Shown: one piece after another, positions 22,800 to 53,432 of the stretch
How the letters are laid out: the number at the start of each line of letters is the position of its first letter
Position numbering within the stretch: the first letter of the stretch is position 1
Assembly (NCBI GenBank): GCA_902796105.1
Contig: CADBNO010000256.1
Location: forward strand, 1-53,432
Length of the DNA stretch: 53,432 bases
Origin: an uncultured Lachnospiraceae bacterium
GTDB taxonomy: Bacteria; Bacillota; Clostridia; Lachnospirales; Lachnospiraceae
Direction of reading: 5' to 3'
Notes under the pieces: generated by a model
Seen by the model: only the letters and a program-made list of their open reading frames with translations
Told to the model about the DNA's origin: nothing
Databases searched by the model: none
Program-made: the position numbers and the translations under genes

Positions 22800-23219
22800 A
22801 TGGGATACGTTCTGAAAAAAAGTGAAGAATATCTGAACGGTTTCCACCGCTATTTCGCTCAAAAAAGGGCGGCAGGCAGACCGACAACTGAAGATACGCT
22901 ACCGCTCATGCAGGACAGCAGGACAGCTCTAAATCCTTTACCAAAGGCAGGCGATAGGATCTTACTCTTTGACACATATACGTTCTCGGATCTTCCGGGA
23001 GCAGCGCTCTATGACCGGTACGAAACAGACATCGGAGGAACGCCGATAGCTTATTATGTCAGGCAGGTTACAGAGAGTAACGTGGTTTTAGAGAGAACGC
23101 TTGAAACTTACAATGAAGATATAACATTGACACGTACTGTCCCCTGTAAGTGGATTACATCAGGGCACTGCGGTTGGATCACTTGTAATGATTATTACAG
23201 GAAAGGAGGAACATCATGA
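22800..23219 (+). CDS. Hypothetical protein
   Basis: GGAGG RBS; stop overlaps the next start (ATGA). Confidence 0.55.
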   Translation: MGYVLKKSEEYLNGFHRYFAQKRAAGRPTTEDTLPLMQDSRTALNPLPKAGDRILLFDTYTFSDLPGAALYDRYETDIGGTPIAYYVRQVTESNVVLERTLETYNEDITLTRTVPCKWITSGHCGWITCNDYYRKGGTS

Positions 23220-23641: not shown

Positions 23642-23676
23642 TAAACAAATATATATAAACAGGGAGGAAAAAAGAA

Positions 23677-24771
23677 ATGGCACAAACAATCAGAGACCTG
23701 AACAAGCAGCTTGCGGAGAAAGCGGAATTAAAGCTGAAAAATGCAGCGGATCCATACTCGCTTTATGAGGCAAGAAAAAAGAAAGACGAAAAGTTTGAAA
23801 TGACGTTCCCCCTTTCAGACGCTGACGGTAATCTCTACTATATTGACGAGAATAAGATCAAGATCATTCTGCCGATGGAGAAGTTACAGGCAACGGATCG
23901 CTTCTATAATTCCCGTTTAAGAGGTAATTATGTCGGCATCAAGACACTCGAAGTACAGATAGATAAAATTGACAGAGAGAATAATATCGTATATCTAAAG
24001 TCTGGCCGTTCTACAGAAAACATTGTAAGAGCAGTAGAGCGAGAGCTGTATGCCGAGGTGAACAGGCGCAGGGAGCTTATCAGAAAAGGAGAACAGCCGG
24101 AAGCATTTCCTGTATATGGTACCGTAGTTTCCGTGGATGCAGCGAGACAAAATGCAACGGTACGCCTTTTCAACCAAAATATCTACGGAACGATCCATGT
24201 TTCAAAATGGGCCAGCTCCTATACCAGATCCTTGCCGGAGGGCATAGAAGATGATGATATGCCGAGACAGTTTGACCTGCTGGGTGTCACAAATCTTGGT
24301 GGACAAAGATATTTCCGTCTTTCTGGAGAAAATTACGGAAACGATGCCTGGAGAGAGGTTCCGGATGAGATCTTTGAGCCAAAGGCAGTTGTCATGGTAG
24401 AGTGCCTTGAAACACCGGTAGGAGATAATCACTGGTGGGGCAAATGCCAGGGTATCGGTGTGGAAGTGATCGGTAATTACTCAACAAAATTTAAGATTGA
24501 AGTAGGAAGATGCTACCTCTGTACTGTAAAACGTAGTAATTCCAAAAACCACACACTGATCGTCACTCCTTTTAAATATATCCGCAAAGAAGGAGAAACA
24601 AAGGAATCTGTCGCTTATCTCACGAAAGATGACTTAAAGAACTTAATGGAAGAAAAGCGTAAAGAGCGACTTGCCAACGAAGGCACAACGGAAGGAAGCA
24701 ATACATCTGAGGAGCAGACCAAAGCACCGGAAGAAAAAAAGACCAGTAAAAAGTCGTCTAAATCAGAATAA
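23677..24771 (+). CDS. Protein with multiple S1/OB-fold-like domains
   Basis: LEVQIDKIDRENNIVYL and VYGTVVSVD...ATVRL....GTIHVSKW resemble S1 domains. Confidence 0.5.
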   Translation: MAQTIRDLNKQLAEKAELKLKNAADPYSLYEARKKKDEKFEMTFPLSDADGNLYYIDENKIKIILPMEKLQATDRFYNSRLRGNYVGIKTLEVQIDKIDRENNIVYLKSGRSTENIVRAVERELYAEVNRRRELIRKGEQPEAFPVYGTVVSVDAARQNATVRLFNQNIYGTIHVSKWASSYTRSLPEGIEDDDMPRQFDLLGVTNLGGQRYFRLSGENYGNDAWREVPDEIFEPKAVVMVECLETPVGDNHWWGKCQGIGVEVIGNYSTKFKIEVGRCYLCTVKRSNSKNHTLIVTPFKYIRKEGETKESVAYLTKDDLKNLMEEKRKERLANEGTTEGSNTSEEQTKAPEEKKTSKKSSKSE

Positions 24772-24799
24772 ACGCTAATTTGTATGACAGGAGAAAGAA

Positions 24800-25831
24800 A
24801 TGAGCAAAGAAGTAGATTTGATAAAAAAATGTTCTGATTCAGCGGAACGTTGCTTCATATACTCAGCAGAAGCTGACGAAAGCTATAGTCTGAAATACAA
24901 CTATTTTCCGGATTCCGTTAAGATGCACCGCTTCCAGTCAGGTGAATACGGAACGGTATCAGATACTTACATCTTGTATATGCTTACGCTGCTTGGCAAT
25001 GTTTCTGTTGAAACCATAGAAAATATGCTGGAGGCATATTCGAGAAACTACAAGAATCTCTTGATAGCGCAAAAGCTGATCACCTCATCCAGCTCAAAGC
25101 AGTCACATGTTGAGAGCAGGATAAAAGTCCTTTTGAAAAATGGATTTGTGTTTTCTCAAAACTTCGATATTGGAAGGCCGGACGGCATGTTTGACAAGAT
25201 CGTTTTATATGGAGTAGGTCGGGACACACAGACATTCATGAACCGTAAACTCGGGAAGAATGTAGTGATGCGCCCATGGGAAATGGCTATTCCCTTAAAT
25301 GACGCTATTTCCGAGGCTGCCAGCGCATTTGTCGCATCTATAGTTGCCTTAAAAGGCGGATGCAGATTAAAGTCCATCAAAGAAGATGCCTTTAAGTCAA
25401 AAGAAATGGGCACAGTACTTCTGCCGCCAACCCTGTTCCTTGACGGGACAAGCGAACTGGAAAAGTACCAGGTGCTTTTCTACCCTGCTTTCTTAAATCA
25501 TGTATCAACCTATCAGACAGATGGGGATTTTGAGCGGACGATCAAGTACAAGATGGATTGTGTGCGTAACTACATATATATGTACCGTAACGTTTCACGA
25601 AAGCCTTTCTGCATCTTTGTCTGTGAAAGCGGAAACGACATGGAAAAGGTACGCAAGGTACTTCAGCAATTAAAGCAGATGCAGGAAAGTCTTCCCTTTA
25701 TCTATTTTACCAGTGAAGGGGCTGTAAGGTACATCTCAAACTTAAGAGATGCCTTCCTACAGATCAGGCCTACCGGAGATGGCGAATTGGTGTATGTGAA
25801 GGCAACACCGCCGTTTATCAAAGCAAACTAA
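24800..25831 (+). CDS. Hypothetical protein (possible N-terminal winged helix)
   Basis: 343 aa ORF with RBS; no confident motif. Confidence 0.55.
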   Translation: MSKEVDLIKKCSDSAERCFIYSAEADESYSLKYNYFPDSVKMHRFQSGEYGTVSDTYILYMLTLLGNVSVETIENMLEAYSRNYKNLLIAQKLITSSSSKQSHVESRIKVLLKNGFVFSQNFDIGRPDGMFDKIVLYGVGRDTQTFMNRKLGKNVVMRPWEMAIPLNDAISEAASAFVASIVALKGGCRLKSIKEDAFKSKEMGTVLLPPTLFLDGTSELEKYQVLFYPAFLNHVSTYQTDGDFERTIKYKMDCVRNYIYMYRNVSRKPFCIFVCESGNDMEKVRKVLQQLKQMQESLPFIYFTSEGAVRYISNLRDAFLQIRPTGDGELVYVKATPPFIKAN

Positions 25832-25851
25832 TATAATTGAGGTGACAGAGA

Positions 25852-27177
25852 GTGTTAAAGAATAAACGTTCCCCGTATTTATGGATCATATTGATCCTTG
25901 TATCCCTCGCAGCTCTTATATATCTGGGCTTGCGCGGTACAGGCAGCAGGGTTACAGAGGAGGAATATAACCCCATTGCGCAGCTTGCGATAGAAAAGAG
26001 TGAGTCGTATGTAGACATGGTACCTCTTCCTTTGACTTATACGTTCTCATCCATGCCCTATATGATAGATGTACTACAATCTGCATATTCACAGACTCCG
26101 CATGGCATTGCGGGTGTGATCTCGGACGGTACCTATCTGTATGTAGGAGAATATGCAACCAAAGAGGGAACAGGATTGAACCTAACACTTGACGAACTTC
26201 CCATGTTTTTCGTGAAAGGGTATAACCGTAGCGGATCTTTTATCACGCCAAAAGCGCAGGCAACAGGCTATCTGCAAGGATTTGGAACGAACTATTGTTT
26301 TTGCAGCATACAGGCAGCAGGAGCTGACGGTTCCAAAGAGTATCTGGCAGCTGTACTTGACTTAAAGAGCGAGGACGAGAATGGTGTTGTGGTGGCTGTT
26401 ATGATCGACGGAAAAGGCAAAGAAAAAAGAACCTATGCTATGGAAAGTGCTATGTCCATAGCCTCTACGATAAGAGAAAATCCGGAATTTGAAACAGCTG
26501 ATACAAAAGAACAGAACAAAGAGCCCGCAGAGATCAACCCGGCCACTCTGGTTGCAGAGGGAGTAGAGATTAAAGTTGCAGAGCCGGCAAAAAGACCGGA
26601 GAACGAGGAAGGAAATGATGCTGTAAGCGATTCAAGTGCGGCATCAGAGCAGGAGTCTACAGTCGAATCTTCTGAAACGCAGACGAAACCTGCAGATACG
26701 CAGTCTACAAAACCTAAAGGATCCGAAAGCGTACCGGAGTCCTCTGAAACGCCCAAGCCGGAGCCGGTACCGGAGTCCTCCGAAGCATCCAAGCCGGAGC
26801 CGGTACCGGAGTCCTCCGAAGCGCCCAAGCCGGAGCCGGTACCGGAGTCCTCCGAAGCTCCAAAACCAGATCCTACACCGGAACCATCAGAAGCTGCGTC
26901 CTCCGCGCCGGCAGAGGATCCAAATGATGTAAGTATTAAATCTTTTGCTTGTCCGTTGGCGGGAGTAGGCATGAGTGTTACAGTGACAACCGGAAGCTAT
27001 TGTCCGGATACAGTCGTCACAATGGAAACACCAGACGGCGATACATTGACTGGAGTATCCGACGGAAGTGGGACATACACATTTAGCACGACATCCACTG
27101 ACGGTACCTATACGGTTAAGACTACACACTTTTCGCAAGTCAGACATGTAAGCGTCAGCGCGCATTTTGGCGGTTGA
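25852..27177 (+). CDS. Membrane-anchored exported protein with Pro/Glu/Ser-rich linker
   Basis: N-terminal TM; KPEPVPESSEA(S/P) repeats; shares LPY/MPY and GY(L/I)xG motifs with the next two ORFs. Confidence 0.65.
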   Translation: MLKNKRSPYLWIILILVSLAALIYLGLRGTGSRVTEEEYNPIAQLAIEKSESYVDMVPLPLTYTFSSMPYMIDVLQSAYSQTPHGIAGVISDGTYLYVGEYATKEGTGLNLTLDELPMFFVKGYNRSGSFITPKAQATGYLQGFGTNYCFCSIQAAGADGSKEYLAAVLDLKSEDENGVVVAVMIDGKGKEKRTYAMESAMSIASTIRENPEFETADTKEQNKEPAEINPATLVAEGVEIKVAEPAKRPENEEGNDAVSDSSAASEQESTVESSETQTKPADTQSTKPKGSESVPESSETPKPEPVPESSEASKPEPVPESSEAPKPEPVPESSEAPKPDPTPEPSEAASSAPAEDPNDVSIKSFACPLAGVGMSVTVTTGSYCPDTVVTMETPDGDTLTGVSDGSGTYTFSTTSTDGTYTVKTTHFSQVRHVSVSAHFGG

Positions 27178-27224
27178 CCGGCACATACGCTTAAAAACAT
27201 CATTGAACCATGAAGGAGATAATC

Positions 27225-28385
27225 ATGAAAAAATCAGAGAAAATAGCGATAGGAATACTGTTACCGCTGTCCATTGTACTTCTTATATTGTACGTACTGA
27301 CTACAGAGTATGCACGCGCGCAACAGAATATTCTTGCATATCCAGAAGGAGGACTGAGTGATTCCCTTTTTGTACAGCAGAACAATAGTTACACGAAAAA
27401 CGATGCCCTGCCGGTGACATTTGCTTTCAACACCCTTCCCTATTATATCGACACAATGAAAGGATCTCAGGCGAATGTAGGGCAGGGATGGATCATCCAG
27501 GCGTCCGACTCGGTATTCATCTTTTTGTCTGAGTACAACGATACAAATAACGATACAGGTGAAGATGTTATTTTAAGAGAATTTCCATCCGCGATCCTGA
27601 TCGACTATGACCCTGTATATACCTACACACAACAGATCAAGTCCCAGAACGGTTATATCAATGGCTTTGAGGCAGAATACAGCTTTGACATGATCACGGT
27701 GTCAAATGGCAAAAATGCGAGGACATGCTACTATGCAGCATATGATCTAAAGAGGATCAATGAGCAAGACCATGACCACATGCTTGTGGCCGTAGTTACA
27801 ACCACAGCTGATTCACAGTCATTTACGGTCTGCAAAAATGCTCTGGATGCAATGGCAAGATCGATAAGATATGACGAAAAATTAAACAAGAAGATCGAAG
27901 AGGCAAAGAAGGAGCAACTTGAAAAAGAGCAGGTAGAGCAGGCGGCAAGCAAATCCTTACAGGAGACAAGCCAAGAGAGTGAAGGATCTGGATCAAACCC
28001 CTATATAAAACCTTCTACTGTAAATCATCCTGACGAACTTATCCAGCATCGTGTTTATGACTATAATTTTGACAGTCTCGTTGAGGAGACGGATGAAGAT
28101 GCAAAATTTGTACCATTGACTGTAGAAAAGAACTACAGCGATATGTATATCTATTTTACCATGGAAAACCTGTGGGAAGATTTCGCACCCGGCAGATGTG
28201 AATTTACACTGTACAATGCCATGCGAGAGAAGATCAGTAGTCCGGAGTATTCAGAAGATGGATCCAAAGTAACATTCCACGTAGGAGAAGTTACTGACGA
28301 CCAGCAAGGTCTGTTCATCATCAAGATCACGCACTATAGCGATTTCGGCAAAGGTACTGTCGAGGTTTCGGACGGTCCGGAGTGA
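27225..28385 (+). CDS. Membrane-anchored exported protein (paralog of 25852-27177)
   Basis: AAGGAG RBS; N-terminal TM; LPVTFAFNTLPYYID and GYINGF parallel LPLTYTFSSMPYMID and GYLQGF. Confidence 0.65.
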   Translation: MKKSEKIAIGILLPLSIVLLILYVLTTEYARAQQNILAYPEGGLSDSLFVQQNNSYTKNDALPVTFAFNTLPYYIDTMKGSQANVGQGWIIQASDSVFIFLSEYNDTNNDTGEDVILREFPSAILIDYDPVYTYTQQIKSQNGYINGFEAEYSFDMITVSNGKNARTCYYAAYDLKRINEQDHDHMLVAVVTTTADSQSFTVCKNALDAMARSIRYDEKLNKKIEEAKKEQLEKEQVEQAASKSLQETSQESEGSGSNPYIKPSTVNHPDELIQHRVYDYNFDSLVEETDEDAKFVPLTVEKNYSDMYIYFTMENLWEDFAPGRCEFTLYNAMREKISSPEYSEDGSKVTFHVGEVTDDQQGLFIIKITHYSDFGKGTVEVSDGPE

Positions 28386-28429
28386 TCCTCACGGAAGATA
28401 ATGTCACACAGCTACGAAAGGACACATTT

Positions 28430-29590
28430 ATGAACATCAAATTAAAGGACAACAGCCAGTGGATAGAGGGAGAAGAAAAAAAGAAGAAGAGAAGGATCAT
28501 CTATATTGCAGCCTTTTTCCTCATGTGCGCTGCTGTGATCGGCGGCAGCACATTTTACAGGTATTACAAAGAGAAGAACGGAAGCGTGTATCCGGAGTTG
28601 GAACTATACGATGTGCCGGATCAAGGAGAGTCAACAGTGACCGTCCGGCAGGGGTATGACAAAGTACTAAAGGTACCTGACCTACCCTACACTATGATGA
28701 TACCCGGAACCGTACTGGTTGAAGGGGATTCATTTTGCATCCTGGAAACAAACGGCCATCATATTGCGATAGGTAAGATTGACAAAAATACAGGGACTAC
28801 GGATTTTATAAGAAATCTCGTACTTCCTTCACTGGGAACGAGCGCTACGGAAACACTGACATTCCAACAGAAAAGAGGATACATCAACGCAAGGCTTGTG
28901 TCTGCACAGGTTGACACGTTCAAAAGGGGCAGTGAAAAAACGATACACAGCATTTCCTACAGGATCCTCTTAGAAGAAAACGAAGATATAATCCTGACTG
29001 GGTTCTCCACAGGGATGGATACTGCTATCTTGAATGATGAAATATTGAGCATATTTAAGTCCGTCTATCAGATGGAGGGAGAAACAGACCAAGGTGAAAG
29101 CAGTGACCCCGGCCAGATTGACAATCTGACAGCTAACGATGGACAAAGTATTGTATATGAAGGGGATGGAGCGCCTATGGATGATGATTTCCTTGAAGAA
29201 GGTACCCCATACAGTACAGAAAAGAACCTGAACCATCTGTATCCGATAGACCCCAATATTGAATACATGGACGTAGAAGAGGTTACGATCACGGTTGACA
29301 AAGACATGGATATGGGGGTTTTTATCTTCAACTATGTGACAGAAGTAAAGTTGAACAGCATCACCCTGTATGATCCAACAGGGGAATTGGGATATGCTCC
29401 GGATGGGTTCGATGATTTCTTTTATCCGGAATATATCTGGCATATCGATCATCCCATGCAGGGAGACTGGAAAGTTGTTTTCTCGGCTCCGTGCTACCTG
29501 GGGACAAGCCAGGCACTGTGCTATCCCCCTGAAGCATATACGGGGCAGGAATCAATGACGCAGAATGGTGATCGCCATAATGACTGGTAG
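28430..29590 (+). CDS. Membrane-anchored exported protein (distant paralog)
   Basis: AAAGGA RBS; N-terminal TM; LPY and GYINA motifs; C-terminal beta-rich TLYDPTG...GDWKV segment. Confidence 0.6.
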   Translation: MNIKLKDNSQWIEGEEKKKKRRIIYIAAFFLMCAAVIGGSTFYRYYKEKNGSVYPELELYDVPDQGESTVTVRQGYDKVLKVPDLPYTMMIPGTVLVEGDSFCILETNGHHIAIGKIDKNTGTTDFIRNLVLPSLGTSATETLTFQQKRGYINARLVSAQVDTFKRGSEKTIHSISYRILLEENEDIILTGFSTGMDTAILNDEILSIFKSVYQMEGETDQGESSDPGQIDNLTANDGQSIVYEGDGAPMDDDFLEEGTPYSTEKNLNHLYPIDPNIEYMDVEEVTITVDKDMDMGVFIFNYVTEVKLNSITLYDPTGELGYAPDGFDDFFYPEYIWHIDHPMQGDWKVVFSAPCYLGTSQALCYPPEAYTGQESMTQNGDRHNDW

Positions 29591-29610
29591 CAAGGAAAGG
29601 ATATACGTTT

Positions 29611-32382
29611 ATGGAACAGAATCTGCCGGAGAACCCATACGATGCAGACAACCTTGATGATTCCGCATACCAAGGGCTGGCAGATGCCGCGGAAACAGGG
29701 GCAAGAACAGTAGTCAGATGGGCCGCATATAAGACAGGCGTACCACAAAAGCTGAAAAAAATAGGGCTTATCCTCATAGGGATATTCTTACTGTTCATGT
29801 CTGCTTTTTTACTTTTGTATGGTGCAGGTGATTATATCAAAGAAAAAGCCTCTGACTGGTGGGACGATTTCCAGCACAGACGAGTGGGTTCAACAGAAGA
29901 TGATTTCATACCCTATTATGATCAGGCCGGCGCCATGCTGGATGCACTGAAGGAAGGTAAGGTGGACATTGGAAATGACATGGTGATGCTTTCCAAGGAA
30001 GACCTTATCATGATCTTAGAATATGTCCAGGAATACAACAATAACCTGATCTATTGCACGGATCCGGAAAGGATACGGTATGAAGTGTCTGTTCGGGAAT
30101 ACGAAGAAGTACCGGATGATGTGGCAACACCACTCCATGACAGAGACGAAATGGCGCCAATACCTACGCATATCGAAGCAAAGGACTGGTCAACGGAGCT
30201 GCGTTATCAGACAGTATCTTATAGTACTTTGGGACAGAACTACTACAACGAGTACACAGAGGAAGATAATTTCGACGTCTCCTGGCAGACGATCACCGCT
30301 CTGTGCGAGATGATGGCCGAAAACAATTATGAGAAATTTGGATCAAATGAAGACGGCTGGGAGAGTGCAAATGGTGCCGGTTTTGAACACGATTATTCCT
30401 TTGAAACATCGATGGATGGTTACTTCCTAACGGATGCGCAGGTTCAAGCGTTATGCGAACTGGTATCTTATGACTTCAGCTGTTACAAGGTAAGCGGTGG
30501 AAAAGACTACGTGGAGTGGACAAAGAAGCTGATAGAGGACAACGATGTACATTACGATGAGGAGGAGCCAGAGTACAGTTACGGGATCGATCTAAAGAAA
30601 GAAGATGTTAAAAAATATTCCTACAGGAAATATCCGGATGTATCCTTCGGCAAGGACGAAGATCAGGTTGACTACGAAGACCTTCGCGTGCCAGAATTAG
30701 CACCTTATAGTATATCAAACTTTTATACCCTCATCACCTATCAGTATGAAGGGTCAGACGATGAGCAGGAACAAGGTTCAAAACAATGTATATCCATGAC
30801 ACTTACCGTTGACGCAAAACGGTTCATGACCATGGTAACAGCACTGATCCCGGACTTTACTTTCGACCATTTCTTTGAGTTGTTAGAGCTGCTGCCGGGT
30901 ACAGAAAAAGAGATCGAGAAATACAAAACGATTGAAAGGTTGTATGAAAAAGGAGAAGAAGCGCAGGAACGGTATAATAATGCCATTACTTCCGGATTGG
31001 ACACAAATATCACATTGGAGGAAGTAAACGCAGCATATCAGGCAAGGAGTATACTCACCGAAGGGTTTCCCTCCATTGGAGTATATATAGGAACAGGCGC
31101 ACATAGTCAGAAAAGTACCATAGCAAACTTTAAGGGTTATGGGGCAGTTTACATAGGGAGTCATATGAGCGGAGGGGCAGTAGTGGAGAGTCCACGGAGA
31201 GTCCCAGCAGTGTATGATGCGTGGTTTAACGTTTGGCCAGAAGCTGAAATTCCTATGGCGTGTTCAGACGGCCTTTCCCTAGAGCAAGTGAAGGAGCTCT
31301 GTCAAAAGACAGCAAGTTATGGGATAACTGCATATCCAGAAGTGCCATATTTTTTCAGACAGGATGAAACGGCTCAAGCACTTTACGACTGGCAAGAAGA
31401 AAACAATGCGTCGATCACAGCAGTACTGGCTATCATAAGAACAGAAGGGAATATGACCAGCGGGAAAGCAGACCGTACATGGAACCTCCTGAACTGGGGA
31501 TCCATAGATTTTAAGGAAAAATACAATGGATCAGATTACAGGAATGATACGGACAAATTCATAAAAGCGCTACTGGAACAGATGGATCTTGTCACAGACA
31601 AGTATATAAATGCGGGACAGGAAACATATTTCAAGATGCAGTTTGGGTCAGACTTTGACTGTCAGATTCCCTCACAGGAAGCGTATGAAGAAGCAGAAAA
31701 GTCCATATCACACGCATTCTGCCCGTGGTGGGATGATTGTGCCTTCCCTTTCAGACTGGGAGATAGTGAAGCATTCCTGAAAGGAAAAGGATGGTGCAAC
31801 AACTGCGCAGATTTTCGTTCACAGCTGCTGGGTTCAGTAGGAATCACAGTATCCAGTGGCTTTGTATGGCCGGTACCGGAATACAACAGGATATCCTCAT
31901 ACTATGGAAACAGAGAAGCACCGACGACGGGAGCTACATCGTTCCATCAGGGTGTCGATATTTCGGCACCGCTCGGGAAAGCTATCGTGGCTGTGGCAGA
32001 TGGCGAAGTAACGGAAGTGACTTATGACGATTATATAGCGAAGAACAAAGCGGCCGGGACAAATTATCGGGCGACCTATACCGTAAGGATCAAACATGAC
32101 GATGGATTGACACAATCGAGATATCTCCACATGGAGGATGCTCCGATGGTAGGGGTAGGCGATAAGGTAGTTGCAGGACAGCAGATTGCTGTGGTAGGAA
32201 GTGGAGGAGTATCCACCGGGCCACACCTGCATATTGAGATAAAGGAGAACGGAAAATTGGTAGACCCCATGAATTATCTGGAAGAACCGAAGAAGCAAAC
32301 AACGATAGGGAATGCGAAAGATGCAGCGCCGGTAGTAAAGGTTCCTGAAAAGAAGGCTGTGCTGACCGATGATTCTCCGTGA
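29611..32382 (+). CDS. Conjugation cell-wall hydrolase with C-terminal M23 peptidase domain
   Basis: WPVP..ISSYYG.R, HQGVD, YLHM, STGPHLH M23 motifs; N-terminal TM anchor. Confidence 0.85.
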   Translation: MEQNLPENPYDADNLDDSAYQGLADAAETGARTVVRWAAYKTGVPQKLKKIGLILIGIFLLFMSAFLLLYGAGDYIKEKASDWWDDFQHRRVGSTEDDFIPYYDQAGAMLDALKEGKVDIGNDMVMLSKEDLIMILEYVQEYNNNLIYCTDPERIRYEVSVREYEEVPDDVATPLHDRDEMAPIPTHIEAKDWSTELRYQTVSYSTLGQNYYNEYTEEDNFDVSWQTITALCEMMAENNYEKFGSNEDGWESANGAGFEHDYSFETSMDGYFLTDAQVQALCELVSYDFSCYKVSGGKDYVEWTKKLIEDNDVHYDEEEPEYSYGIDLKKEDVKKYSYRKYPDVSFGKDEDQVDYEDLRVPELAPYSISNFYTLITYQYEGSDDEQEQGSKQCISMTLTVDAKRFMTMVTALIPDFTFDHFFELLELLPGTEKEIEKYKTIERLYEKGEEAQERYNNAITSGLDTNITLEEVNAAYQARSILTEGFPSIGVYIGTGAHSQKSTIANFKGYGAVYIGSHMSGGAVVESPRRVPAVYDAWFNVWPEAEIPMACSDGLSLEQVKELCQKTASYGITAYPEVPYFFRQDETAQALYDWQEENNASITAVLAIIRTEGNMTSGKADRTWNLLNWGSIDFKEKYNGSDYRNDTDKFIKALLEQMDLVTDKYINAGQETYFKMQFGSDFDCQIPSQEAYEEAEKSISHAFCPWWDDCAFPFRLGDSEAFLKGKGWCNNCADFRSQLLGSVGITVSSGFVWPVPEYNRISSYYGNREAPTTGATSFHQGVDISAPLGKAIVAVADGEVTEVTYDDYIAKNKAAGTNYRATYTVRIKHDDGLTQSRYLHMEDAPMVGVGDKVVAGQQIAVVGSGGVSTGPHLHIEIKENGKLVDPMNYLEEPKKQTTIGNAKDAAPVVKVPEKKAVLTDDSP

Positions 32383-32414
32383 TCCTTAAGCAAGAAATAA
32401 AGCGAGGGCGCCGC

Positions 32415-32671
32415 GAAGTTAAGATAACTTTATACTATACTTAACTTCGTACCCCTTGTACCCCTGTTTGGTGCCACGGGAGAGAGGGGCTGCCCTACCC
32501 CATAAAGCCTCCCATGACATACCCGCAGGTCTCCCGCACGCGGAGAAAAAAGCTTGAAGGCGCTGAAGTTAAGATAACTTTAGGCTATACTTAACTTCGC
32601 GCCCCTTGTATCCCTGTTTGGTGCCACGGGAGAGCGGGGCTGCCCTGCCCCATAAAGCCTCCCATGACATA
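32415..32671 (+). repeat. 107-bp direct repeat x2 (32415-32521, 32565-32671), each starting with a 34-bp quasi-palindrome
   Basis: GAAGTTAAGATAACTTTA(TA/GG)CTATACTTAACTTC...CCCATGACATA duplicated at 150-bp period with few mismatches. Confidence 0.9.
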
Positions 32672-33067
32672 TATTTCATTCTTTTTTTATCCATCCAAAT
32701 CTGCGGCCGGCGGTAAGCGCCGTCCGCAGATAACGCTGGTGCCATGGGGCGCGGTTTCATATTACTTTTGGCGCGCCTCTTGACATAAATTTCTTCCTTT
32801 GTAGATAGCCCTGGCGGGTGGCAGACCGCCGGGGCATTGAAGCAGAAGGAAGCGGTGATATGATTGCAGCTTCCTTGACATAGACCACGTATCCCTTCCT
32901 TAGTTATGCCCTTTGCGGGTGCCTTACGCACCCGCTGAAAGAGAGAAAAGAGAGAAGAGAGAGAGGACACCCAAGCCGCGCGCAAGAAAAGACAGCAAAA
33001 AAAGAGAGGAAAGGCGGCGAAAAGGACTTGCGAAGTTAAGTATAGCCTAAAGTTATCTTAACTTCAG
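32563..33067. repeat. Segment flanked by perfect 38-bp inverted repeats (32563-32600 and 33030-33067)
   Basis: CTGAAGTTAAGATAACTTTAGGCTATACTTAACTTCGC and its exact reverse complement. Confidence 0.9.
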
Positions 33068-33106
33068 TAACCTAGAAACTAATTTTTCTATATAAGGAGG
33101 CATCTT

Positions 33107-34915
33107 ATGTCCGATACAACCTATTTAAAAGACGATATTCTTACCACCCAGGCGATCACAGCTTCCGTCAAGGAACAGACCCTTTACCCAAACGATGGCT
33201 TGCAGGGATCCTACCCGTTCTTACGTGCCGACCGCTCCGGTAACCACAAGCTCGTCTTTGTCCTGATCCAAAAGACAGAAAACAAGATGGTGGTACCCAA
33301 GCAGGTCGTTTCAGCCTCTATTGCTGACGGTACGGTACTTTCCAGAGAACCTGCGGAGAGGTTCTACGCTTCCCTCCAGGAAGGCATCACTACGCCCATA
33401 GGATCCATCAGAAAGGATCAGGATCGAGAAACCGCACAAGCCTATCGGGAAAAGGCCCTGCCCCTTATGGACGAAATGCGCCTTGAGATACTGGAACATG
33501 GCGAGACTTCGGCAGATAAGTACATGGAATATCTTAAGTATTCCCTCTACCCTTATACGGATGAGCTGGCCGAGCGATTCTTAAGAGCATCCCGCATCTT
33601 CGTGACGGCATCCTCCATCACCATTCCCTGCTCCTCCTGTGGGAAAAAGTTTCAGATCTCTACAAGTGGTCTGATCCCCGGCAAGATCATCTCAAACACC
33701 TGTCCATTCTGTCAGGATATCGTACAGACCTCTTATGTAAGGACTGGAAAATGTATCACTTTTACGGATCGATACATGGAAGAGTACCGCTTACGATCCG
33801 TCAAAAAACAAAAGGAGGCCGAGGAAGAAGAACGGCACACCTTCTTTGAGAATCTCACGGAAGAAAAGAGCTTCTCTGTGGAAGCATCTTCCGCAAAGGG
33901 CAGGAAAAAACCTGCTGCCGGACAGAAACTTCCCCAGGATTCTTCTGAGCAGACAGATATTGCTGCCCCTTTGCCTGAAAAAGAGAAAGAGAAGACACAA
34001 CCGCTTACTTCATCTCAGGAAGAAACGTCCTACACCGGCATGGCAGCAGAGGAAAAGGAAAAACCTATACTTACTCCGGTTCCAAAAGAAGCAGAGGTAA
34101 CAGAGGCAGCAGTGACGGAAGAGACCTCTCCGACCATCATGCCGACAGTTCCTATACCCCCCGTGATGCCCCCGCAAGCTCCCACAGAGACACAGAATGC
34201 CTTCTCACAATCCATAGTACATGATTATGATGCTCCGGAACATAAATCTGTCAAATCTGCTTTCGCGGCGATCCGGGCAATACTCGCCTCCGACTGCAAA
34301 ACTCCGCCGGTAGTCATTGCCCTTGTGGGAAATCCCGGAAGCGGCATCCTGACTTCTCTGATCCGGCTTTCCGGGTACAAGAAAGAGGATATAAGGATCC
34401 TTGGCGCTGACAGAGCATCCAGAGAGGACTTTACCGCCCCCTGCACGGTCCTTTTATGCAACGGCAGCAGTCCCTCCGCAGAGATAAGGGATGCCATTAC
34501 AACAATGCAGAAGGGACAAGCAATATTTTTGGCGGGCACAAAAGAGAACGTGGATGCTGCAGTCCTCTCCGATCCCGTCATAAATCACTATCTTTTATAC
34601 CGTATCTTCTACAAAGCATACAAGCCGGAAACTCTATATAAGATCATGGAAGACAGATTTATGGATTACGGGGTGTCCTTAGAGCCGACAGCAGACAGAA
34701 ACGAGATCCTTACCGCCCTTTCAGGCATCGATGCCCTTGCCGTAACTCGCATATGCGCATTCCTGTACTTCAAATGTGTTATGAACCGGAAAACACCTGA
34801 TCAGGAGCTGACTGTGACCCCGAAAGAACTGCTTCAGGAACTTACAAGGGAAAAGCAAAAGACATCATTCTCTGAACCAGGTAAAGAAAACACGCAGGCA
34901 GAAGGGAAAGTGTGA
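33107..34915 (+). CDS. Hypothetical protein: zinc ribbon, low-complexity linker, degenerate AAA+-like C-terminus
   Basis: CSSC-x19-CPFC; LVGNPGSG lacking the Walker A Lys; AAGGAGG RBS. Confidence 0.6.
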   Translation: MSDTTYLKDDILTTQAITASVKEQTLYPNDGLQGSYPFLRADRSGNHKLVFVLIQKTENKMVVPKQVVSASIADGTVLSREPAERFYASLQEGITTPIGSIRKDQDRETAQAYREKALPLMDEMRLEILEHGETSADKYMEYLKYSLYPYTDELAERFLRASRIFVTASSITIPCSSCGKKFQISTSGLIPGKIISNTCPFCQDIVQTSYVRTGKCITFTDRYMEEYRLRSVKKQKEAEEEERHTFFENLTEEKSFSVEASSAKGRKKPAAGQKLPQDSSEQTDIAAPLPEKEKEKTQPLTSSQEETSYTGMAAEEKEKPILTPVPKEAEVTEAAVTEETSPTIMPTVPIPPVMPPQAPTETQNAFSQSIVHDYDAPEHKSVKSAFAAIRAILASDCKTPPVVIALVGNPGSGILTSLIRLSGYKKEDIRILGADRASREDFTAPCTVLLCNGSSPSAEIRDAITTMQKGQAIFLAGTKENVDAAVLSDPVINHYLLYRIFYKAYKPETLYKIMEDRFMDYGVSLEPTADRNEILTALSGIDALAVTRICAFLYFKCVMNRKTPDQELTVTPKELLQELTREKQKTSFSEPGKENTQAEGKV

Positions 34916-35367
34916 CTTTTATGGATATTTCAAAACTTTATCAGCCAAAAGCCGAATTACCAAAAGATTTCTGGTATCTGATCGACCAGCAGAGCATTGG
35001 TGCCATCTATCTTTCTGAACTGGTGGAACTGGCTATGCTATACCCCTACAAATCTCTGAAGGAGTTGTATCAAATCGGCCTCTACGAAGACCGGTTCCCC
35101 ACGAAATCCGAGGAGCCTACGTATAACACGATCTATCAGGCGATCCGGTTTGCCCTGCGGGATTTCCCGGCATTCGCCTCCGGAGAACTAAAGATCAAGG
35201 AGATCGTGTTTGAACTAGCGCACAGGGGCATCAAAAACACCTGCATCATCGAATGTCCGCACTGTCACAGGAAGTGGATCTTCGATGATTCCTGCATTAA
35301 AGCAGGGGAGAAATATGAAGTCCTCTGCAGGCATTGTCACATCCCGCTTGCCCGGACAAAAACATGA
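34912..35367 (+). CDS. Possible Spo0A C-terminal-like DNA-binding domain fused to a zinc ribbon
   Basis: GAIYL...KELY...TYNTIYQAIRFAL resembles Spo0A_C (GY.YL...KELY...VERAIRHAI); CPHC-x19-CRHC. Confidence 0.4.
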   Translation: MTFMDISKLYQPKAELPKDFWYLIDQQSIGAIYLSELVELAMLYPYKSLKELYQIGLYEDRFPTKSEEPTYNTIYQAIRFALRDFPAFASGELKIKEIVFELAHRGIKNTCIIECPHCHRKWIFDDSCIKAGEKYEVLCRHCHIPLARTKT

Positions 35368-35447
35368 TATTTTTGCTTTTTTTCTCTTTCGAGGAAGGAT
35401 CCGTCGCTTTTGAGCCTAATAAAAATGTAAATTCTGGAAAATGATAC

Positions 35448-35476
35448 TTGCAAAACATGTTTTTATATGCTACTAT
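35448..35476 (+). promoter_or_regulatory. Putative SigA promoter of the sortase gene
   Basis: TTGCAA-17nt-TACTAT with an extended -10 TG. Confidence 0.5.
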
Positions 35477-35534
35477 GATCTTACAACGATATGTGCTATC
35501 ACATCTTATATTTGATAGCACACAAAGGGAGTAT

Positions 35535-36407
35535 ATGAGAGAAACCAGTCATACGGACAAAAAAACGGAAAAAATTAACGCAAAAAGGATAGCCGTTGCT
35601 TTCCTGACCGCTCCGATCACACTGATCGTGTTCGCCCTGGGTCTTTTGATCTGCCTTACCCACGTAGGGCACATGATCCATGATGATCAGGTCGCAGGAA
35701 AGCTGATCGCGGAATTTGAGGAGGAGGCCTCTGCATTCCCGCCTCCAGCGACGCAGACAGATACAGAAGCACCGGACAGCTCCTTTCCTGTCAGTGAAAG
35801 CAACACGGCGGGAGAGGAAAGTCAGACAGATGCTGAACCCTCACAGACAGTCACACAGGTACAGACATACACAAACGTGATCTCCCCTGTGGACGATGCA
35901 GCCGGATATATACGGATCCGAAACACAAACATTTCCTATCCGGTCATGTACTCCGAAGAAGAGGGCTACTATCTGGATCATGCAGCCAACGGATCAAAGA
36001 ACCGCAACGGAGCGATCTATCTCGCTCCAGAGAACAATGAAGATTTTTCAGATGCCATCAATTATGTTTTTGGCCACAATATGACCTCCGGGCTGATGTT
36101 CCGACAGTTGAATGATTACCTGAAAAAACCAGGCTTTCTGGAATCCCATAACGACTGTGAGATCGTCGTTGATGGAGTAATGAACCGTTACACCTTATTC
36201 TTCGCGGAATCCATCCCGTCCGACCTCGAAATGACGATCTACGATCAAAATGCATTAGGTTCTGAAGTCTACAAAAAATACATAAATGCCCTGTCCCAGA
36301 AAACGGGATATACTCTGACCGAAAATGACCGCATCCTTGTGCTCATCACCTGCACCACAGGACACAGGAGCAACCGTACCGTAGTCTACGGTGTAAGCAG
36401 AGAATAG
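35535..36407 (+). CDS. srtB: Class B sortase
   Basis: N-terminal TM; GYIRI.NTNISYPV, YYL.H, GAIYL, GHNM.SGLMF, LITC and downstream Arg. Confidence 0.85.
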   Translation: MRETSHTDKKTEKINAKRIAVAFLTAPITLIVFALGLLICLTHVGHMIHDDQVAGKLIAEFEEEASAFPPPATQTDTEAPDSSFPVSESNTAGEESQTDAEPSQTVTQVQTYTNVISPVDDAAGYIRIRNTNISYPVMYSEEEGYYLDHAANGSKNRNGAIYLAPENNEDFSDAINYVFGHNMTSGLMFRQLNDYLKKPGFLESHNDCEIVVDGVMNRYTLFFAESIPSDLEMTIYDQNALGSEVYKKYINALSQKTGYTLTENDRILVLITCTTGHRSNRTVVYGVSRE

Positions 36408-46602: not shown

Positions 46603-48240
46603 ATGTTTGATTTACCATTTCCGGATATTCCACGTAAATATCCGCACGAACTGACAAGTGAAGAAATTTTTATAGCGATTTTAGCAAAAATTCAGCAGAA
46701 ATTTCCCTTGGAAGAACTGAAAAAAGATCCGCCTTCCCACATGGGCTGTTACCGTTTCTTTTCTCACTACTTTGCAAATGAGGACATGCTATATGATATA
46801 CCTTTTATTACAAGGATGTTTCTGCAACATGAGTTTACCAACTTAAGCCTATCAGACAACGAAGAACTACCATTGATGCACAACACCCTAGATACCACAC
46901 CGTCGCTCATGAATAGCCGGCTGATCATCAGCGCGATTGTTAATTGTGCAAACAAGGGAAATGAGTACGCAAAGCAGTTTCTTCTGAAACTGTATAAGAC
47001 GTACTACAAAAAGGAATACAACGCATTTAAAAGATTCCGTTCCCTTACAACAGAAGATGTTCTTTCACTCATCCACACACAGGACAAGATGGAAGAAGAG
47101 AATCTCACGGTCAACCTAGCAAGAATTCTCTATATAGCAGAACTATCAGACATACAACTGGATGCACAATGCGAGGTATTCTATATCCTCCTCAATGATG
47201 TGAGCGAGCCCGATGCAATAGAGGCCGCAATGGTGGAAGACGAGGACGAAGATTACAACCGTCCACTCTTCGAGATCCGCGAAGAGCTGGAATGTATCTA
47301 TGGTATAGATGAGCTGGAAGCCATTTATGAAAGCATATATATTTTTTTGGAAAAAGCCTGCGTACAGCATGGGCTAAACCCAGACTACATGGAACTGAAC
47401 CTCGGCTACGATGACCTATTAGACCGATTAGCGTTCACAAGAAGATTACTCATGCAATCCCGTCATATGCCGGAAATAGACGAGGAAGAGCTTGTCTTAT
47501 ACTCGATGATATTACTATGCGTGATCGCCGCGTCCAACAATGCCGCGGCAAACAGGATCATTATGAATACCACGCTGTTCGGAAAAGAAGGCTCCCTGGC
47601 CTATAAAGATTATGAGCCCAAATTTAGAGCGAAAGACATAGCAGTACCGGCAAAGAAGCCGCTACCACAACCGACACCGGAAAATCCAAACAAAAAGACC
47701 ATGGATCCACAGATCAAGTCGGCAGAAATCGAAGAATTAAAGCGTTCCCTTCGCCTCATGGAGTCCGAAAACAATGCTCTCCGTCTGGAACTTTCCGAGA
47801 AAAAGGCAGCCGAGAAAGACCATTTATCAACGAAAGAACAGCTGGAGATCGCAAACCGTGAATTGGCCGCCTTGCGAACCCACGTCTACAATATGACACA
47901 GCAGGATCCCGTGAAGGATATACCGCTGGAAGCCATGAAAGAGGAAATCTCGAAACTTCGGATCTTGATCATAGGGGGACATCCGAATTGGATAGCGAAA
48001 TTGAAAAACGAGTTCCCCAACTGGACGTTTATTACACCGGAAGCTAGCGGCACGACCGATACCTCTATCATCAACAAAGCTGACTACATATATTTCTTCA
48101 CGGAAACCATCAGCCACACAAGGTATTTTCAGTTTAAAAATATCATCTGCGAGCGAAAAGCCCGATTTGGATACTTACATGGTGTCAATATAGACAGCAA
48201 TATCCGCGATATCTACAAAGATACTGCTTGCATACGTTAA
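46603..48240 (+). CDS. Coiled-coil protein with C-terminal DUF2325 domain
   Basis: ILIIGGHPNW...ADYIYFFTETISH matches DUF2325 (hhhGG...AD.hhhhT..hSH); preceded by a coiled coil. AAAGGA RBS; only 15 bp from the next gene. Confidence 0.75.
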   Translation: MFDLPFPDIPRKYPHELTSEEIFIAILAKIQQKFPLEELKKDPPSHMGCYRFFSHYFANEDMLYDIPFITRMFLQHEFTNLSLSDNEELPLMHNTLDTTPSLMNSRLIISAIVNCANKGNEYAKQFLLKLYKTYYKKEYNAFKRFRSLTTEDVLSLIHTQDKMEEENLTVNLARILYIAELSDIQLDAQCEVFYILLNDVSEPDAIEAAMVEDEDEDYNRPLFEIREELECIYGIDELEAIYESIYIFLEKACVQHGLNPDYMELNLGYDDLLDRLAFTRRLLMQSRHMPEIDEEELVLYSMILLCVIAASNNAAANRIIMNTTLFGKEGSLAYKDYEPKFRAKDIAVPAKKPLPQPTPENPNKKTMDPQIKSAEIEELKRSLRLMESENNALRLELSEKKAAEKDHLSTKEQLEIANRELAALRTHVYNMTQQDPVKDIPLEAMKEEISKLRILIIGGHPNWIAKLKNEFPNWTFITPEASGTTDTSIINKADYIYFFTETISHTRYFQFKNIICERKARFGYLHGVNIDSNIRDIYKDTACIR

Positions 48241-48255
48241 GAAAGGAAATTACAA

Positions 48256-49929
48256 ATGGAAAAATTAGTTGAAAGATCACACGTCTCTACAATAAAGATC
48301 CGTCTGGAGCCGATAGGGGATAAGGCAGAGATCAAAAGAGTAACGGATTATCTAAAAAACGGGATGGAAGTACAATCCACCATGATGAACCAGTACATTT
48401 CTGCGCTCTATGTAGCCAAAAAGAATAATATTCCCCAGGAAGAATGGAAGCAGATTGCAGCTACCTACTCAAGAATCCCTGGATCTTCGAAGGGTTCCGC
48501 TTATAGCATGGATATCCTGCCGAAATATCCCACAGGACTTCCACTTGCAGGATCCATACCTTTCAATGTAAATAAAAAATTCAACGCAGCGTGTAAAAAA
48601 GGTCTTTTACACGGTACGATATCGCTTCCAACCTTTAGAAAAGATTACCCCCTCTATGTTCACAATTACTTTGTGAGCATTGCTGGCTCCAAAACAGGCA
48701 GTTCTGGGAAACCAGTAAGGACCGGCATTACACATACATACGCATCGATGGAAGATTTTACAACGGCGCTCTACACAAAAAGAACGCCCGAAATCATTCT
48801 CATTTTTGCAAACAATATTAAATTTCAACTCGTTCTGGGGGATATTGGAAAATCTATACAGCTTAGGAAAACTCTTGAAAACTGTTTCAACTACAAGAAC
48901 ACAAAATATGAAATCTGCGATTCCCAGATCCAGCTGAAAAAAGAAAAGATTTTTTTATTGCTTTCTGTAAGGATTCCTTCAATGGAAATTCCCTTAGACG
49001 AAAATAAAGTAGTTGGAGTTTCATTTGGCAAAGATATTCCTCTGATCTGCGCCCTCAATGACGAAAATCATACCACCTTAAAGGTAGGAGATAAGGCAAA
49101 CAGCAGCGATTACAAGACCAAATTGTACGAAAGAAGAAAGCAGCTGCAAATGAGTGCGGCTGATTGCCGAGGAGGTCATGGCAGATCCCGCAAGCTCCAA
49201 CGATTAGAACGGCTCCATGATACGCAAAGAAACTTTATAAAGACGTATAATCACACACTCAGCAAACGTGTCGTTGATTTCGCCCTTTCAAATAATGCAA
49301 AATACATCAATCTGGAAGACATGACTTTTCTGAAAAATCAAGATAAGGATTCCCTCGCGCTGGGCGATTGGGCTTACTATGAATTGCAATCTATGATCCA
49401 GTACAAAGCTGAAGCTAACGGGATTATAGTCCGCAAGGTACTTCCAGCAGCTCCAGTATGCGCAATATGCGGTCATCAGCTTACGGACGAGGAAGATGAG
49501 TTTTTCACCTGCCCCAACCCGACTTGTGCAAAGCATGAGGATAAACGGTTATTAGACTTAGACACCAATGCAGCATGTGCGATTGCAGACAGTAAGGATT
49601 TTACCAAGGAAACTTTAAAGCTCCTCCCGGATCACATAAAGAAAGAATGGAGCAAATCTAACCCAATCGTCGTCGCTAAGAGATACATTACGGTCACTAA
49701 TGACTTCCGAAGAGCAGACGCCGTACTCCTGAAGAATAAAGTAAAATACCAAAACTGCATTATATTTTCAAACGGGATCGTTAAGATCATGTGCGAAGAT
49801 GATTTTTACCATGAATTTGACATCAAGATGGACCTGAAGAATGCAATTGATAAGGAAGAGTACAAAATAATCACAGATATCATTAAAAACAAAAACGATG
49901 CAAATGAGAGATTAGCAGATACAGATTGA
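48256..49929 (+). CDS. cas12f: Cas12f-like (type V-F/TnpB superfamily) effector, predicted nuclease-dead, with C-terminal extension
   Basis: AsCas12f1-like motifs G.ISLPTFRKD.PL, SQI, RGGHGR, NH.LSK.VVDFA, INLEDM (E354), W.YYELQ..IQYKAE..GI.V, CAIC...CPNPTC, D436 in LDTNAA. RuvC-I reads VVGVSFG (S256, codon TCA at 49021) instead of hGhDLG. Directly followed by tracr-like RNA and CRISPR repeats. Confidence 0.88.
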   Translation: MEKLVERSHVSTIKIRLEPIGDKAEIKRVTDYLKNGMEVQSTMMNQYISALYVAKKNNIPQEEWKQIAATYSRIPGSSKGSAYSMDILPKYPTGLPLAGSIPFNVNKKFNAACKKGLLHGTISLPTFRKDYPLYVHNYFVSIAGSKTGSSGKPVRTGITHTYASMEDFTTALYTKRTPEIILIFANNIKFQLVLGDIGKSIQLRKTLENCFNYKNTKYEICDSQIQLKKEKIFLLLSVRIPSMEIPLDENKVVGVSFGKDIPLICALNDENHTTLKVGDKANSSDYKTKLYERRKQLQMSAADCRGGHGRSRKLQRLERLHDTQRNFIKTYNHTLSKRVVDFALSNNAKYINLEDMTFLKNQDKDSLALGDWAYYELQSMIQYKAEANGIIVRKVLPAAPVCAICGHQLTDEEDEFFTCPNPTCAKHEDKRLLDLDTNAACAIADSKDFTKETLKLLPDHIKKEWSKSNPIVVAKRYITVTNDFRRADAVLLKNKVKYQNCIIFSNGIVKIMCEDDFYHEFDIKMDLKNAIDKEEYKIITDIIKNKNDANERLADTD

Positions 49930-49939
49930 GATACAATTT

Positions 49940-50047
49940 CATACACCGGGCTGACTTTGCAGCCTTGAACGTGAGGTATAGGAGCCACGGTTTCGACGGA
50001 TCTGACCGAAAGAGCCGCCTACGCACTCACGAAAGCCTATGCTTGAG
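49940..50047 (+). ncRNA. Putative tracrRNA copy 1
   Basis: Hairpin GGCTG-ACTTTG-CAGCC whose loop CTTTG is complementary to the repeat 3' end CAAAG; long stem CGTGAG...CTCACG; 3' GCCTATGCT (50035-50043) complementary to repeat-A GGCATGGGT. Confidence 0.75.
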
Positions 50048-50257
50048 GGTTTGTAACCATCTATTTTGGCATGGGTACAAAGCGGGGGTGTAATTTTAAA
50101 AAATTCATGTTAAGGGTTGTAACCATCTATTTTGGCATGGGTACAAAGCGTAGATGTAGATATTGTTTTGTGTGAAAGCGGTTTGTAACCATCTATTTTG
50201 GCATGGGTACAAAGCAAAGCTATTATTGGGTGATGTTGCGATGTCAGTGAGGTTTGT
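50048..50257 (+). CRISPR. Mini CRISPR array A: three 36-bp repeats, two 30-bp spacers, plus a third spacer and a possible degenerate end
   Basis: GGTTTGTAACCATCTATTTTGGCATGGGTACAAAGC at 50048-50083, 50114-50149 (1 mismatch) and 50180-50215; unique spacers 50084-50113 and 50150-50179; GGTTTGT remnant at 50251. Confidence 0.9.
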
Positions 50258-50281
50258 TCCCTTACAATTTCAATAATTACA

Positions 50282-50389
50282 CATACACCAGGCTGACTTT
50301 GCAGCCTTGAACGTGAGGTATAGGAGCCACGGCTTCGACGGATCTGGCCGAAAGAGCCGCCTACGCACTCACGGAAGCCCATGTTTGAG
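50282..50389 (+). ncRNA. Putative tracrRNA copy 2
   Basis: 108-nt copy of 49940-50047 with 6 substitutions; anti-repeat GCCCATGTT (50377-50385) fits repeat-B AACATGAGT. Confidence 0.75.
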
Positions 50390-50491
50390 GGTTTGTACCC
50401 ATCTGGTTTAACATGAGTACAAAGCTTGAGGAAATCGTAGGATAGGTAAATTTTGGGTTTGTACCTATCTGGTTTAACATGAGTACAAAGC
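50390..50491 (+). CRISPR. Mini CRISPR array B: two 36-bp repeats and one 30-bp spacer
   Basis: GGTTTGTACC(C/T)ATCTGGTTTAACATGAGTACAAAGC at 50390-50425 and 50456-50491; spacer 50426-50455. Confidence 0.85.
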
Positions 50492-50514
50492 ACGTTATTA
50501 TTATTCCTCATTTT

Positions 50515-50554
50515 TATTCCACGTAAATATTCCACGAACTGACAAGTGAAGAAA
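50515..50554 (+). repeat. Imperfect 40/41-bp direct repeat of 46626-46666
   Basis: TATTCCACGTAAATAT-(TC vs CCG)-CACGAACTGACAAGTGAAGAAA: identical blocks of 16 and 22 bp. Confidence 0.85.
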
Positions 50555-53224: not shown

Positions 53225-53432
53225 CTAAACCAAAGCACTATAAAATGCCACCATACGATCCATACGTGCAGACATATTGATCATCATAGCATCCAGAATA
53301 GTTATCGCTGTCATGCACTCCATGACCACCACTGCCCTGGGTACGATGATGGGATCGTGTCTGCCTTTTATGGTGAGTTCTGTTTCTTCACCGGTGTTAG
53401 TGACGGTCTGCTGAGGCTGATAGATGGAGGGG
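53225..53432 (-). CDS. aroC: Chorismate synthase, 3' end (partial)
   Basis: Manual translation PSIYQPQQTV...IKGRHDPIIVPRAVVVMECMTAITILD...; GRHDP..VPRA is the AroC signature. Confidence 0.9.
   Translation of the reverse strand, partial: PSIYQPQQTVTNTGEETELTIKGRHDPIIVPRAVVVMECMTAITILDAMMINMSARMDRMVAFYSALV

Follow-up and report, generated by a model that had tools for sequence, protein, structure and literature searches.

What can a compact CRISPR effector do for the mobile element that carries it once a catalytic residue of its nuclease has been replaced? This question is raised by a window of 53,432 nucleotides from an uncultured Lachnospiraceae bacterium (contig C256 of the 2.49-Mb genome bin G000, a metagenome-assembled genome (MAG) that is 85% complete), which contains a cas12f gene encoding Ser at the RuvC-I Asp position, followed by two cassettes of predicted trans-activating CRISPR RNA (tracrRNA) and CRISPR array (Table 1). 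Since the cutting residue is replaced, the guide genes are intact and changing, and one guide matches the same assembly, binding and silencing rather than cutting is likely. We consider it fairly probable that this Cas12f silences accessory defence or mobile-element cargo genes by binding, that it is reprogrammable, and that its targets can reside in the host chromosome. The observations underlying this reading are the substitutions, purifying selection, spacer differences between copies, and three TTAT-flanked protospacers, one of them in the bin. Below, L, G and P numbers denote loci, genomes and Cas12f proteins (the window protein is P0001), and X numbers denote public sequencing runs, which are animal gut metagenomes according to their records.

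By sequence and fold comparison, the window protein is confirmed as a V-F1 (V-U3) Cas12f in which Ser replaces the RuvC-I Asp. Specifically, phmmer aligns its VVGVSFG with the VVGVDLG of CnCas12f1 (8hr5, E 3.7e-43), the best solved relative, and PADLOC returns Cas12u3 (E 1e-75) and Cas12f (E 8e-73), in accordance with V-F1 homology, with no V-U1 or V-M model among its 11 matches. An AlphaFold model with a predicted local distance difference test score of 86.6 finds CnCas12f1 and AsCas12f1 first (Foldseek, 8hr5, E 4e-24), and Cas12m ranks 40th or lower, at 8% identity. The Cas12f-like identity proposed in the initial annotation is upheld, and the open reading frame (ORF) translation and homolog alignment bear out its description of a 557-aa protein with S256 (codon TCA), E354, D436 and AAPVC in place of the usual YTSQxC. 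The RuvC-I Asp is retained in 109/119 homologs, and the window triad reads S-E-D where an intact V-F1 Cas12f1 has D-E-D. An X2 contig from another study spans codon 256 without any difference from the window, and AAPVC also stands in L163, a sister copy of the module with about 98.5% DNA identity.

The substitution at position 256 is accompanied by wider erosion of the nuclease half. Among positions conserved across 40 active relatives, the window protein has lost 20 of 74 in the nuclease half and 2 of 45 in REC/WED (Fisher P=0.0015), leaving 54/74 and 43/45, respectively, whereas active sisters retain 69–73 of the 74. The losses include the further active-site neighbours R370, N371, S399, Q400, F437, R441 and N442. 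In the tree set, the TS motif is missing from 20/21 RuvC-I-mutant proteins and from 2/156 others, kin among them not being independent. Alanine substitution of conserved RuvC aspartates abolishes cleavage by Sp/AsCas12f1, the dead forms being D228A/D225A (PMC8548392). On these sequence grounds, the window Cas12f likely cannot cut DNA.

Judged by its substitutions, the window cas12f is not a decaying copy. Window and L163 cas12f differ by six nonsynonymous and nine synonymous changes, giving a dN/dS ratio (omega) of 0.18 (P=0.001), and, because both compared copies are dead, it is the dead form that is under purifying selection. In the same comparison, omega is 0.07–0.16 for six of the seven neighbouring genes, and the seventh has no synonymous change. 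The initial annotation had named close homologs all retaining Asp, together with relaxed selection here, as the mark of a pseudogene; the closest relatives do keep Asp, yet the omega of cas12f indicates no relaxed selection.

The guide genes likewise appear well formed, as the initial annotation stated: the gene is followed by two tracr and array units with the family's covarying scaffold. One tracr precedes each array, the two copies are about 92–94% alike, and both have the layout of the family, in which a hairpin whose 6-nt loop pairs with the end of the repeat is combined with a long stem and an anti-repeat. A tracrRNA between gene and array that pairs with the repeat is the V-F1 arrangement, predicted here in silico only. 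Across related loci, 37 of 51 distinct loop and repeat-end pairs (18 loop types), both window cassettes included, are Watson-Crick at 5/5 positions, compared with 6.9 on average and 16 at most under permutation; many of the 14 non-pairing cases resemble truncated repeat or loop calls by the script, and related loci are not independent. tracr1 favours repeat 1 (−13.7 vs −9.4 kcal/mol), and we do not claim strict cassette specificity because tracr2 too pairs better with repeat 1, so that compensation is only partial. A 5-nt duplication of the end of the repeat precedes the third spacer of array 1, and a degenerate repeat start follows that spacer at 50251, while spacer 5 stops after about 22 nt, cut by a 41-bp duplication. 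Rfam gave no match, promoter and terminator scans stay at chance level, and only the tracr finds a match when the array is compared with 150 genus genomes. Spacer sets differ among the window, L163/X3, X2 and X20, those of L163 being entirely unlike the window's; L163 and X3 carry identical spacers and are therefore not independent of each other.

Three of the five window spacers have protospacers. Spacer 3 matches 30/30 in a non-array X2 contig, at boundaries assigned beforehand, spacer 4 matches 30/31 in an X1 contig, and spacer 5 matches at 19 of its first 20 nt at G000:C75:11929-11910, within the same genome bin. All three protospacers have TTAT at −5 to −2, from which we infer a protospacer-adjacent motif (PAM) of TTATN. 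TTAT occurs with a per-position frequency of 0.0046 across the genome and of 0.019 within the AT-rich target gene. When spacer 5 was shuffled 2000 times, three shuffles reached 19/20 anywhere and none exceeded 17/20 at TTATN sites. The X2 protospacer contig has, by eye, one of six frames open over 90 nt, in the same orientation as at the C75 site. Comparing the spacers with phages and plasmids by blastn gave no credible target, exact seeds of spacers 3 and 4 had no match in viral contigs, and a PAM search with spacers of 338 relatives against local loci gave nothing for the window clade. Several candidates were rejected: two viral matches to the spacer 2 seed end at 20 nt with a flank other than TTATN, matches to the spacer 5 seed (≤2 mismatches) occur in 3/150 genus genomes and in 4/151 of the reversed control, which is chance, and the 41-bp copy after spacer 5 starts 23 nt after the repeat and lies on the mRNA's own strand, excluding it as a self-targeting guide.

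The C75 protospacer lies 208 nt into the ORF of an unannotated gene, and its PAM end faces the promoter; in this orientation, TldR blocked elongation (10.1101/2023.11.30.569447). The gene is 27% GC and stands between lexA and an IS66, and its product is helical, with hydrophobic, probably membrane-spanning segments, and belongs to a family of 29 proteins. Homologs occur in 3/400 other genomes of the bacterial family, each beside defence or mobile genes: type II restriction-modification (R-M) and an integrase in G302, a type I-like R-M fusion with MobA in G411, and qatABCD in G244. The 224-aa putative membrane protein family is a candidate for a defence gene by its neighbourhood only, because its members have no Pfam, PADLOC or fold assignment. 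The upstream neighbour of the C75 gene abuts the IS66 and has a weak PADLOC match to Cas12a (E 1e-5). That C75 and C256 share one cell is inferred from binning and from aroC, the bin's only copy of which is split, with its 3′ end on C256 and its 5′ end on C65, tying the element to the bin.

These data suggest a mechanism in which a tracrRNA:crRNA (CRISPR RNA) pair would load onto Cas12f, and the protein would assemble as a dimer like other Cas12f1 (PMC8548392). The complex would form an R-loop at a target behind a TTATN PAM without cleavage, acting as a roadblock that sterically blocks elongation, as for Cas12m (PMC11013384) and TldR (10.1101/2023.11.30.569447). The element would thereby turn Cas12f on AT-rich accessory genes (cargo of defence islands and mobile elements) that may already lie in the chromosome of its host, and there a cut would be lethal to the cell carrying the element. 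The initial proposal is supported in part: selection, spacer turnover and three PAM-consistent protospacers, one of them in the host bin, speak for a Cas12f that is maintained, predicted to be nuclease-dead, and programmable to bind DNA of defence systems or competitors.

Several points weigh against silencing of accessory genes by binding. The PAM TTATN was derived post hoc, from three sites; only 1/5 window spacers and 0/3 L163 spacers have a target in G000, and spacers 1 and 2 are without a credible one. The target protein has a best structural Z of 8.0, to generic helices, and C256 is the compositional outlier of an incomplete MAG, so that its co-residence with C75 depends on binning and on the split aroC. 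The omega of 0.18 comes from a single pair and 15 changes, and the support for expression consists of three short contigs in one RNA run, indistinguishable from DNA. Furthermore, Cas1 was not found in the bin, and spacers may be gained through the machinery of a different host or by arrays recombining with each other, which the mixed repeat types allow. Finally, E354 and D436 persist in the protein, and A260D adds a new acidic residue close to the active site.

The same biochemistry could serve another purpose, namely binding-only interference with incoming plasmids, integrative and conjugative elements or phages, in which case the chromosomal match would be incidental because the target gene is mobile cargo. 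Two of the three protospacers lie on short metagenome contigs and had no match in G000, the spacers are 23–43% GC in a genome of 49%, target homologs sit on integrative or mobilizable elements, and Cas12m provides a precedent (PMC11656645, PMC11013384). Against such competition between elements, which we regard as unlikely, stand the sole identified target, an accessory membrane gene and not a replication or transfer gene, and the lack of a credible spacer match in the phage, plasmid and viral collections.

The retained acidic residues raise the alternative of a weak or rearranged V-F1 nuclease, for example with D260 in the role of D256; the four Zn cysteines are also kept, and rearranged RuvC-II/RuvC-III sites predicted to be active are described (PMC10691335). 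We give this little credence in view of the seven further active-site losses, the near-general absence of the TS motif from RuvC-I mutants (kin again not independent) and the 19/20 PAM-flanked target in the same bin. The initial annotation had also offered, as one option, an output through the C-terminal domain or the DUF2325 protein, in which the ribonucleoprotein would recruit that protein or a host factor for activation, DNA modification or another function. The C-terminal domain is confidently modelled, a fold search gave it no assignable fold, and the DUF2325 gene ends 15 nt upstream of cas12f, with which it is probably co-transcribed, and has an omega of 0.12. However, the extension predates inactivation, being common to the active-site-intact relatives P0004–P0008, P0025, P0072 and P0082, and of the 308 loci surveyed only the window and L163 have the DUF2325 neighbour, which 305 others lack. 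No Cas12f match came from two genomes that have DUF2325 orthologs (both genes end at contig ends), and viral contigs have no DUF2325 loci. The DUF2325 protein is not a conserved partner of Cas12f in the loci surveyed, and neither it nor the extension is specific to the dead state, which together with the lack of a sigma factor, TnsB/TnsC or Mu transposase among the window ORFs scanned makes effector recruitment quite improbable. The least probable alternative is that the system is a relic in decay, or acts only as a decoy sequestering RNAs, its arrays being passively shuffled by recombination. A terminal branch of 0.65 (0.17–0.47 in sisters), heterogeneous and partial repeats, the missing Cas1 and the truncated spacer 5 would fit it, but purifying selection after inactivation, the conserved REC/WED, the intact ORF in both full copies (window and L163) and spacers with exact PAM-flanked protospacers do not.

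Silencing by a dead Cas12f may have arisen more than once. In an approximate FastTree of 182 de-duplicated proteins out of 286, computed with the catalytic-motif columns taken out, P0001 lies on a long branch within a clade of D-E-D proteins (P0004–P0008, support 0.975). The D-to-S change is not clade-wide, the closest relatives keeping Asp. With one truncated row left out, the full triad is missing from 27 rows, which form 17 groups; since three of these are a sigma-E-type outgroup, dead forms would have arisen about 14 separate times in the Cas12f family. It is possible, and at present doubtful, that gut-Firmicute mobile elements have in this way repeatedly made V-F1 Cas12f a reprogrammable natural CRISPR interference (CRISPRi) system, and that the window element uses it as counter-defence against defence-island genes in the chromosome of its own host; the changing spacers would then point to undescribed defence genes, the one for the 224-aa putative membrane protein on C75 among them. 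Close relatives of the window Cas12f are sparse, with one weak and two distant matches in 60 relatives and 400 family genomes.

Other members of the family deserve mention. The dead relatives L068 and L195 have arrays and phage-like gene contexts: L068:5995-8040, on a viral contig, encodes an S-Q-D protein of a 93-member cluster, is a close sister of active L087 and has a longer array that degenerates distally and has no match in phages, while L195:1989-7700 encodes an H-E-D protein with three tracr and array cassettes around the gene. In Clostridium sp. AF37-5, a dead N-E-E Cas12f of a 415-member cluster has tracr-like RNAs on both sides (L089:7390-7587 and 9182-9490) and degenerate repeats, no array being detected, which may parallel the array-to-single-guide collapse of sigma-E dCas12f (dead Cas12f). 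On a Clostridioides difficile chromosome, a spacer of an active Cas12f array (L102:5052-5080) matches L258:6820-6845, L116, L081 and L168 at 26/28 nt, in the AYTSQ-coding part of cas12f genes and with a flank ending in CCT, so that this array is apparently aimed at competing cas12f genes.

How does the window system relate to described ones? V-F1/V-U3 Cas12f1 (CnCas12f1, AsCas12f1 and Os/Rh/Al3Cas12f) give the best sequence and fold matches and share the Zn finger and the tracrRNA between gene and array; the window system would likewise use a 5′ PAM. The window protein differs in the lost RuvC-I Asp and TS motif and the C-terminal extension of about 110 aa, and its system in the inferred PAM and a tolerated target in the same genome bin; it is a predicted dead derivative of V-F1 Cas12f1, not a canonical member. 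Cas12m (type V-M/V-U1) is similarly borne on mobile elements, RuvC-altered and array-programmed, and silences by binding (PMC11013384, PMC11656645), but it uses a single crRNA without tracrRNA (PMC11013384) and has Roof elements, whereas the window has tracr genes and lacks V-U1 homology. TldR offers a parallel in its repeated independent RuvC decay to RNA-guided repressors, as predicted here, and the roadblock orientation agrees. TldR derives from TnpB, is directed to promoters by a single fixed omega-RNA-like guide and has partner genes that are stable; the window system, by contrast, takes guides from changing arrays with tracrRNAs, is nested among array-bearing Cas12f, has a host target inside an ORF on another contig, and has no conserved neighbour gene. 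The sigma-E-linked dCas12f of Bacteroidota share broad Cas12f1 ancestry and related RNA hairpins, but form a separate branch of activating, single-guide proteins of about 365 aa beside rpoE, truncated before the Zn finger and RuvC-III; the window Cas12f keeps both, and no adjacent rpoE is recognised. Cas12k of V-K CRISPR-associated transposons (CASTs) and Mu-linked V-F CASTs are also dead type V effectors with tracrRNA, but no Tn7 or Mu transposition genes are recognised in the window. The system is best read as an independently inactivated V-F1 that would work like Cas12m or TldR and belongs to neither.

The suggestion that the system may be undescribed holds for the window lineage and not for its kind, as Hoffmann et al. 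(PMC13472631, Extended Data Fig. 1a,b) present a cluster of dCas12f that are linked to CRISPR arrays, lack sigma-E and are predicted to act on efflux promoters as repressors. Those proteins are likewise predicted to be nuclease-dead and lie beside arrays without rpoE; the window is set apart, as far as the description there extends, by nesting among active gut-Firmicute Cas12f and by a host target inside an ORF, the worked example being a Chitinophagaceae MAG with an RND efflux promoter target. Large Cas12f branches with altered catalytic sites have been noted (PMC10691335), V-M, V-F on plasmids and Mu V-F CASTs are covered in PMC11656645, and the accessible part of PMC13622181 has nothing further on arrays. 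In the mostly open literature, we found neither a description of the gut-Firmicute lineage nor a TTATN PAM for Cas12f or a link to DUF2325, and the supplements of PMC13472631 and PMC10691335 could list such proteins.

The initial annotation called the carrying element conjugative. This is borne out only in part. Rep3, an M23 peptidase, a sortase, a pilin-like adhesin and, with a match below cut-off, a VirB4-like ATPase are present; a search of the 85%-complete genome gave no coupling protein, and the window ORFs scanned include neither a relaxase nor an integrase. As that annotation also stated, TnsB, TnsC, TniQ and sigma factors are not recognisable, none of these families, nor a Mu transposase, appearing in the Pfam scan of window ORFs (for sigma factors, above cut-off); a genome search for TniQ was empty, its control likewise giving no match, and the element's left end lies off the contig. 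The DUF2325 profile match is weak (E 0.004, below cut-off), and the ESM Atlas neighbours are DUF2325 clusters. A pair of 41-bp near-direct repeats, probably a rearrangement scar, brackets the DUF2325, cas12f and array module. At window 46503-46507, directly upstream of the DUF2325 gene, the L163/X3 allele is longer by about 134 bases. Elsewhere, the element carries a 2900-aa SpaH/EbpB-like pilin or adhesin (184-8886) together with the sortase, and between the arrays and aroC lie an IS30-type helix-turn-helix protein without transposase core (50750-51394) and a RelB-like antitoxin gene apparently split over two frames (51446-51743).

Table 1. Coordinates of the cas12f module, its carrying element and the matched gene (window positions unless a contig is named)
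Feature	Position	Strand	Description
Conjugation-like block	14971..36407	+	VirB4-like, VirB6-like, M23 and sortase genes of the carrying element
DUF2325-like gene	46603..48240	+	545-aa coiled-coil protein, C-terminal DUF2325-like domain
41-bp near-direct repeat, left copy	46626..46666	+	About codons 9-21 of the DUF2325 gene
cas12f (V-F1/V-U3)	48256..49929	+	557 aa; D256S with E354 and D436 retained; no TS motif; Zn ligands retained; C-terminal extension of ~110 aa
Codon 256 = TCA	49021..49023	+	Identical in sister copy L163 and run X2
Predicted tracrRNA 1	49940..50047 (ends approximate)	+	Hairpin with loop pairing with repeat 3′ end, long stem, anti-repeat
Array 1	50048..50250	+	Three 36-nt repeats (starts 50048, 50114, 50180); 30-nt spacers 50084-50113, 50150-50179, 50221-50250
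Predicted tracrRNA 2	50282..50389 (ends approximate)	+	
Array 2	50390..50514	+	Two 36-nt repeats of second type (starts 50390, 50456); spacer 4 50426-50455 (30 nt); spacer 5 from 50492
41-bp near-direct repeat, right copy	50515..50554	+	Hybrid between the window allele and the L163 allele at the 5′ end of the DUF2325 gene; truncates spacer 5
Host aroC 3′ end	53225..53432	−	5′ end at end of contig C65
Target gene, 224 aa	G000:C75:11462-12136 (L309:4463-5137, −)		Unannotated putative membrane protein

The window thus holds a predicted natural, compact, array-programmed and tracrRNA-dependent Cas12f silencer that is directly testable, with an inferred PAM of TTATN and a named native target. Its protein is a candidate for a small CRISPRi or base-editing scaffold, and its spacers may point to undescribed defence genes. 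Because the change appears to have arisen many times from active ancestors, pairs of active and dead sisters are open to study. If the proposed reading is true, loss of the nuclease would let a mobile element target genes already within its host.

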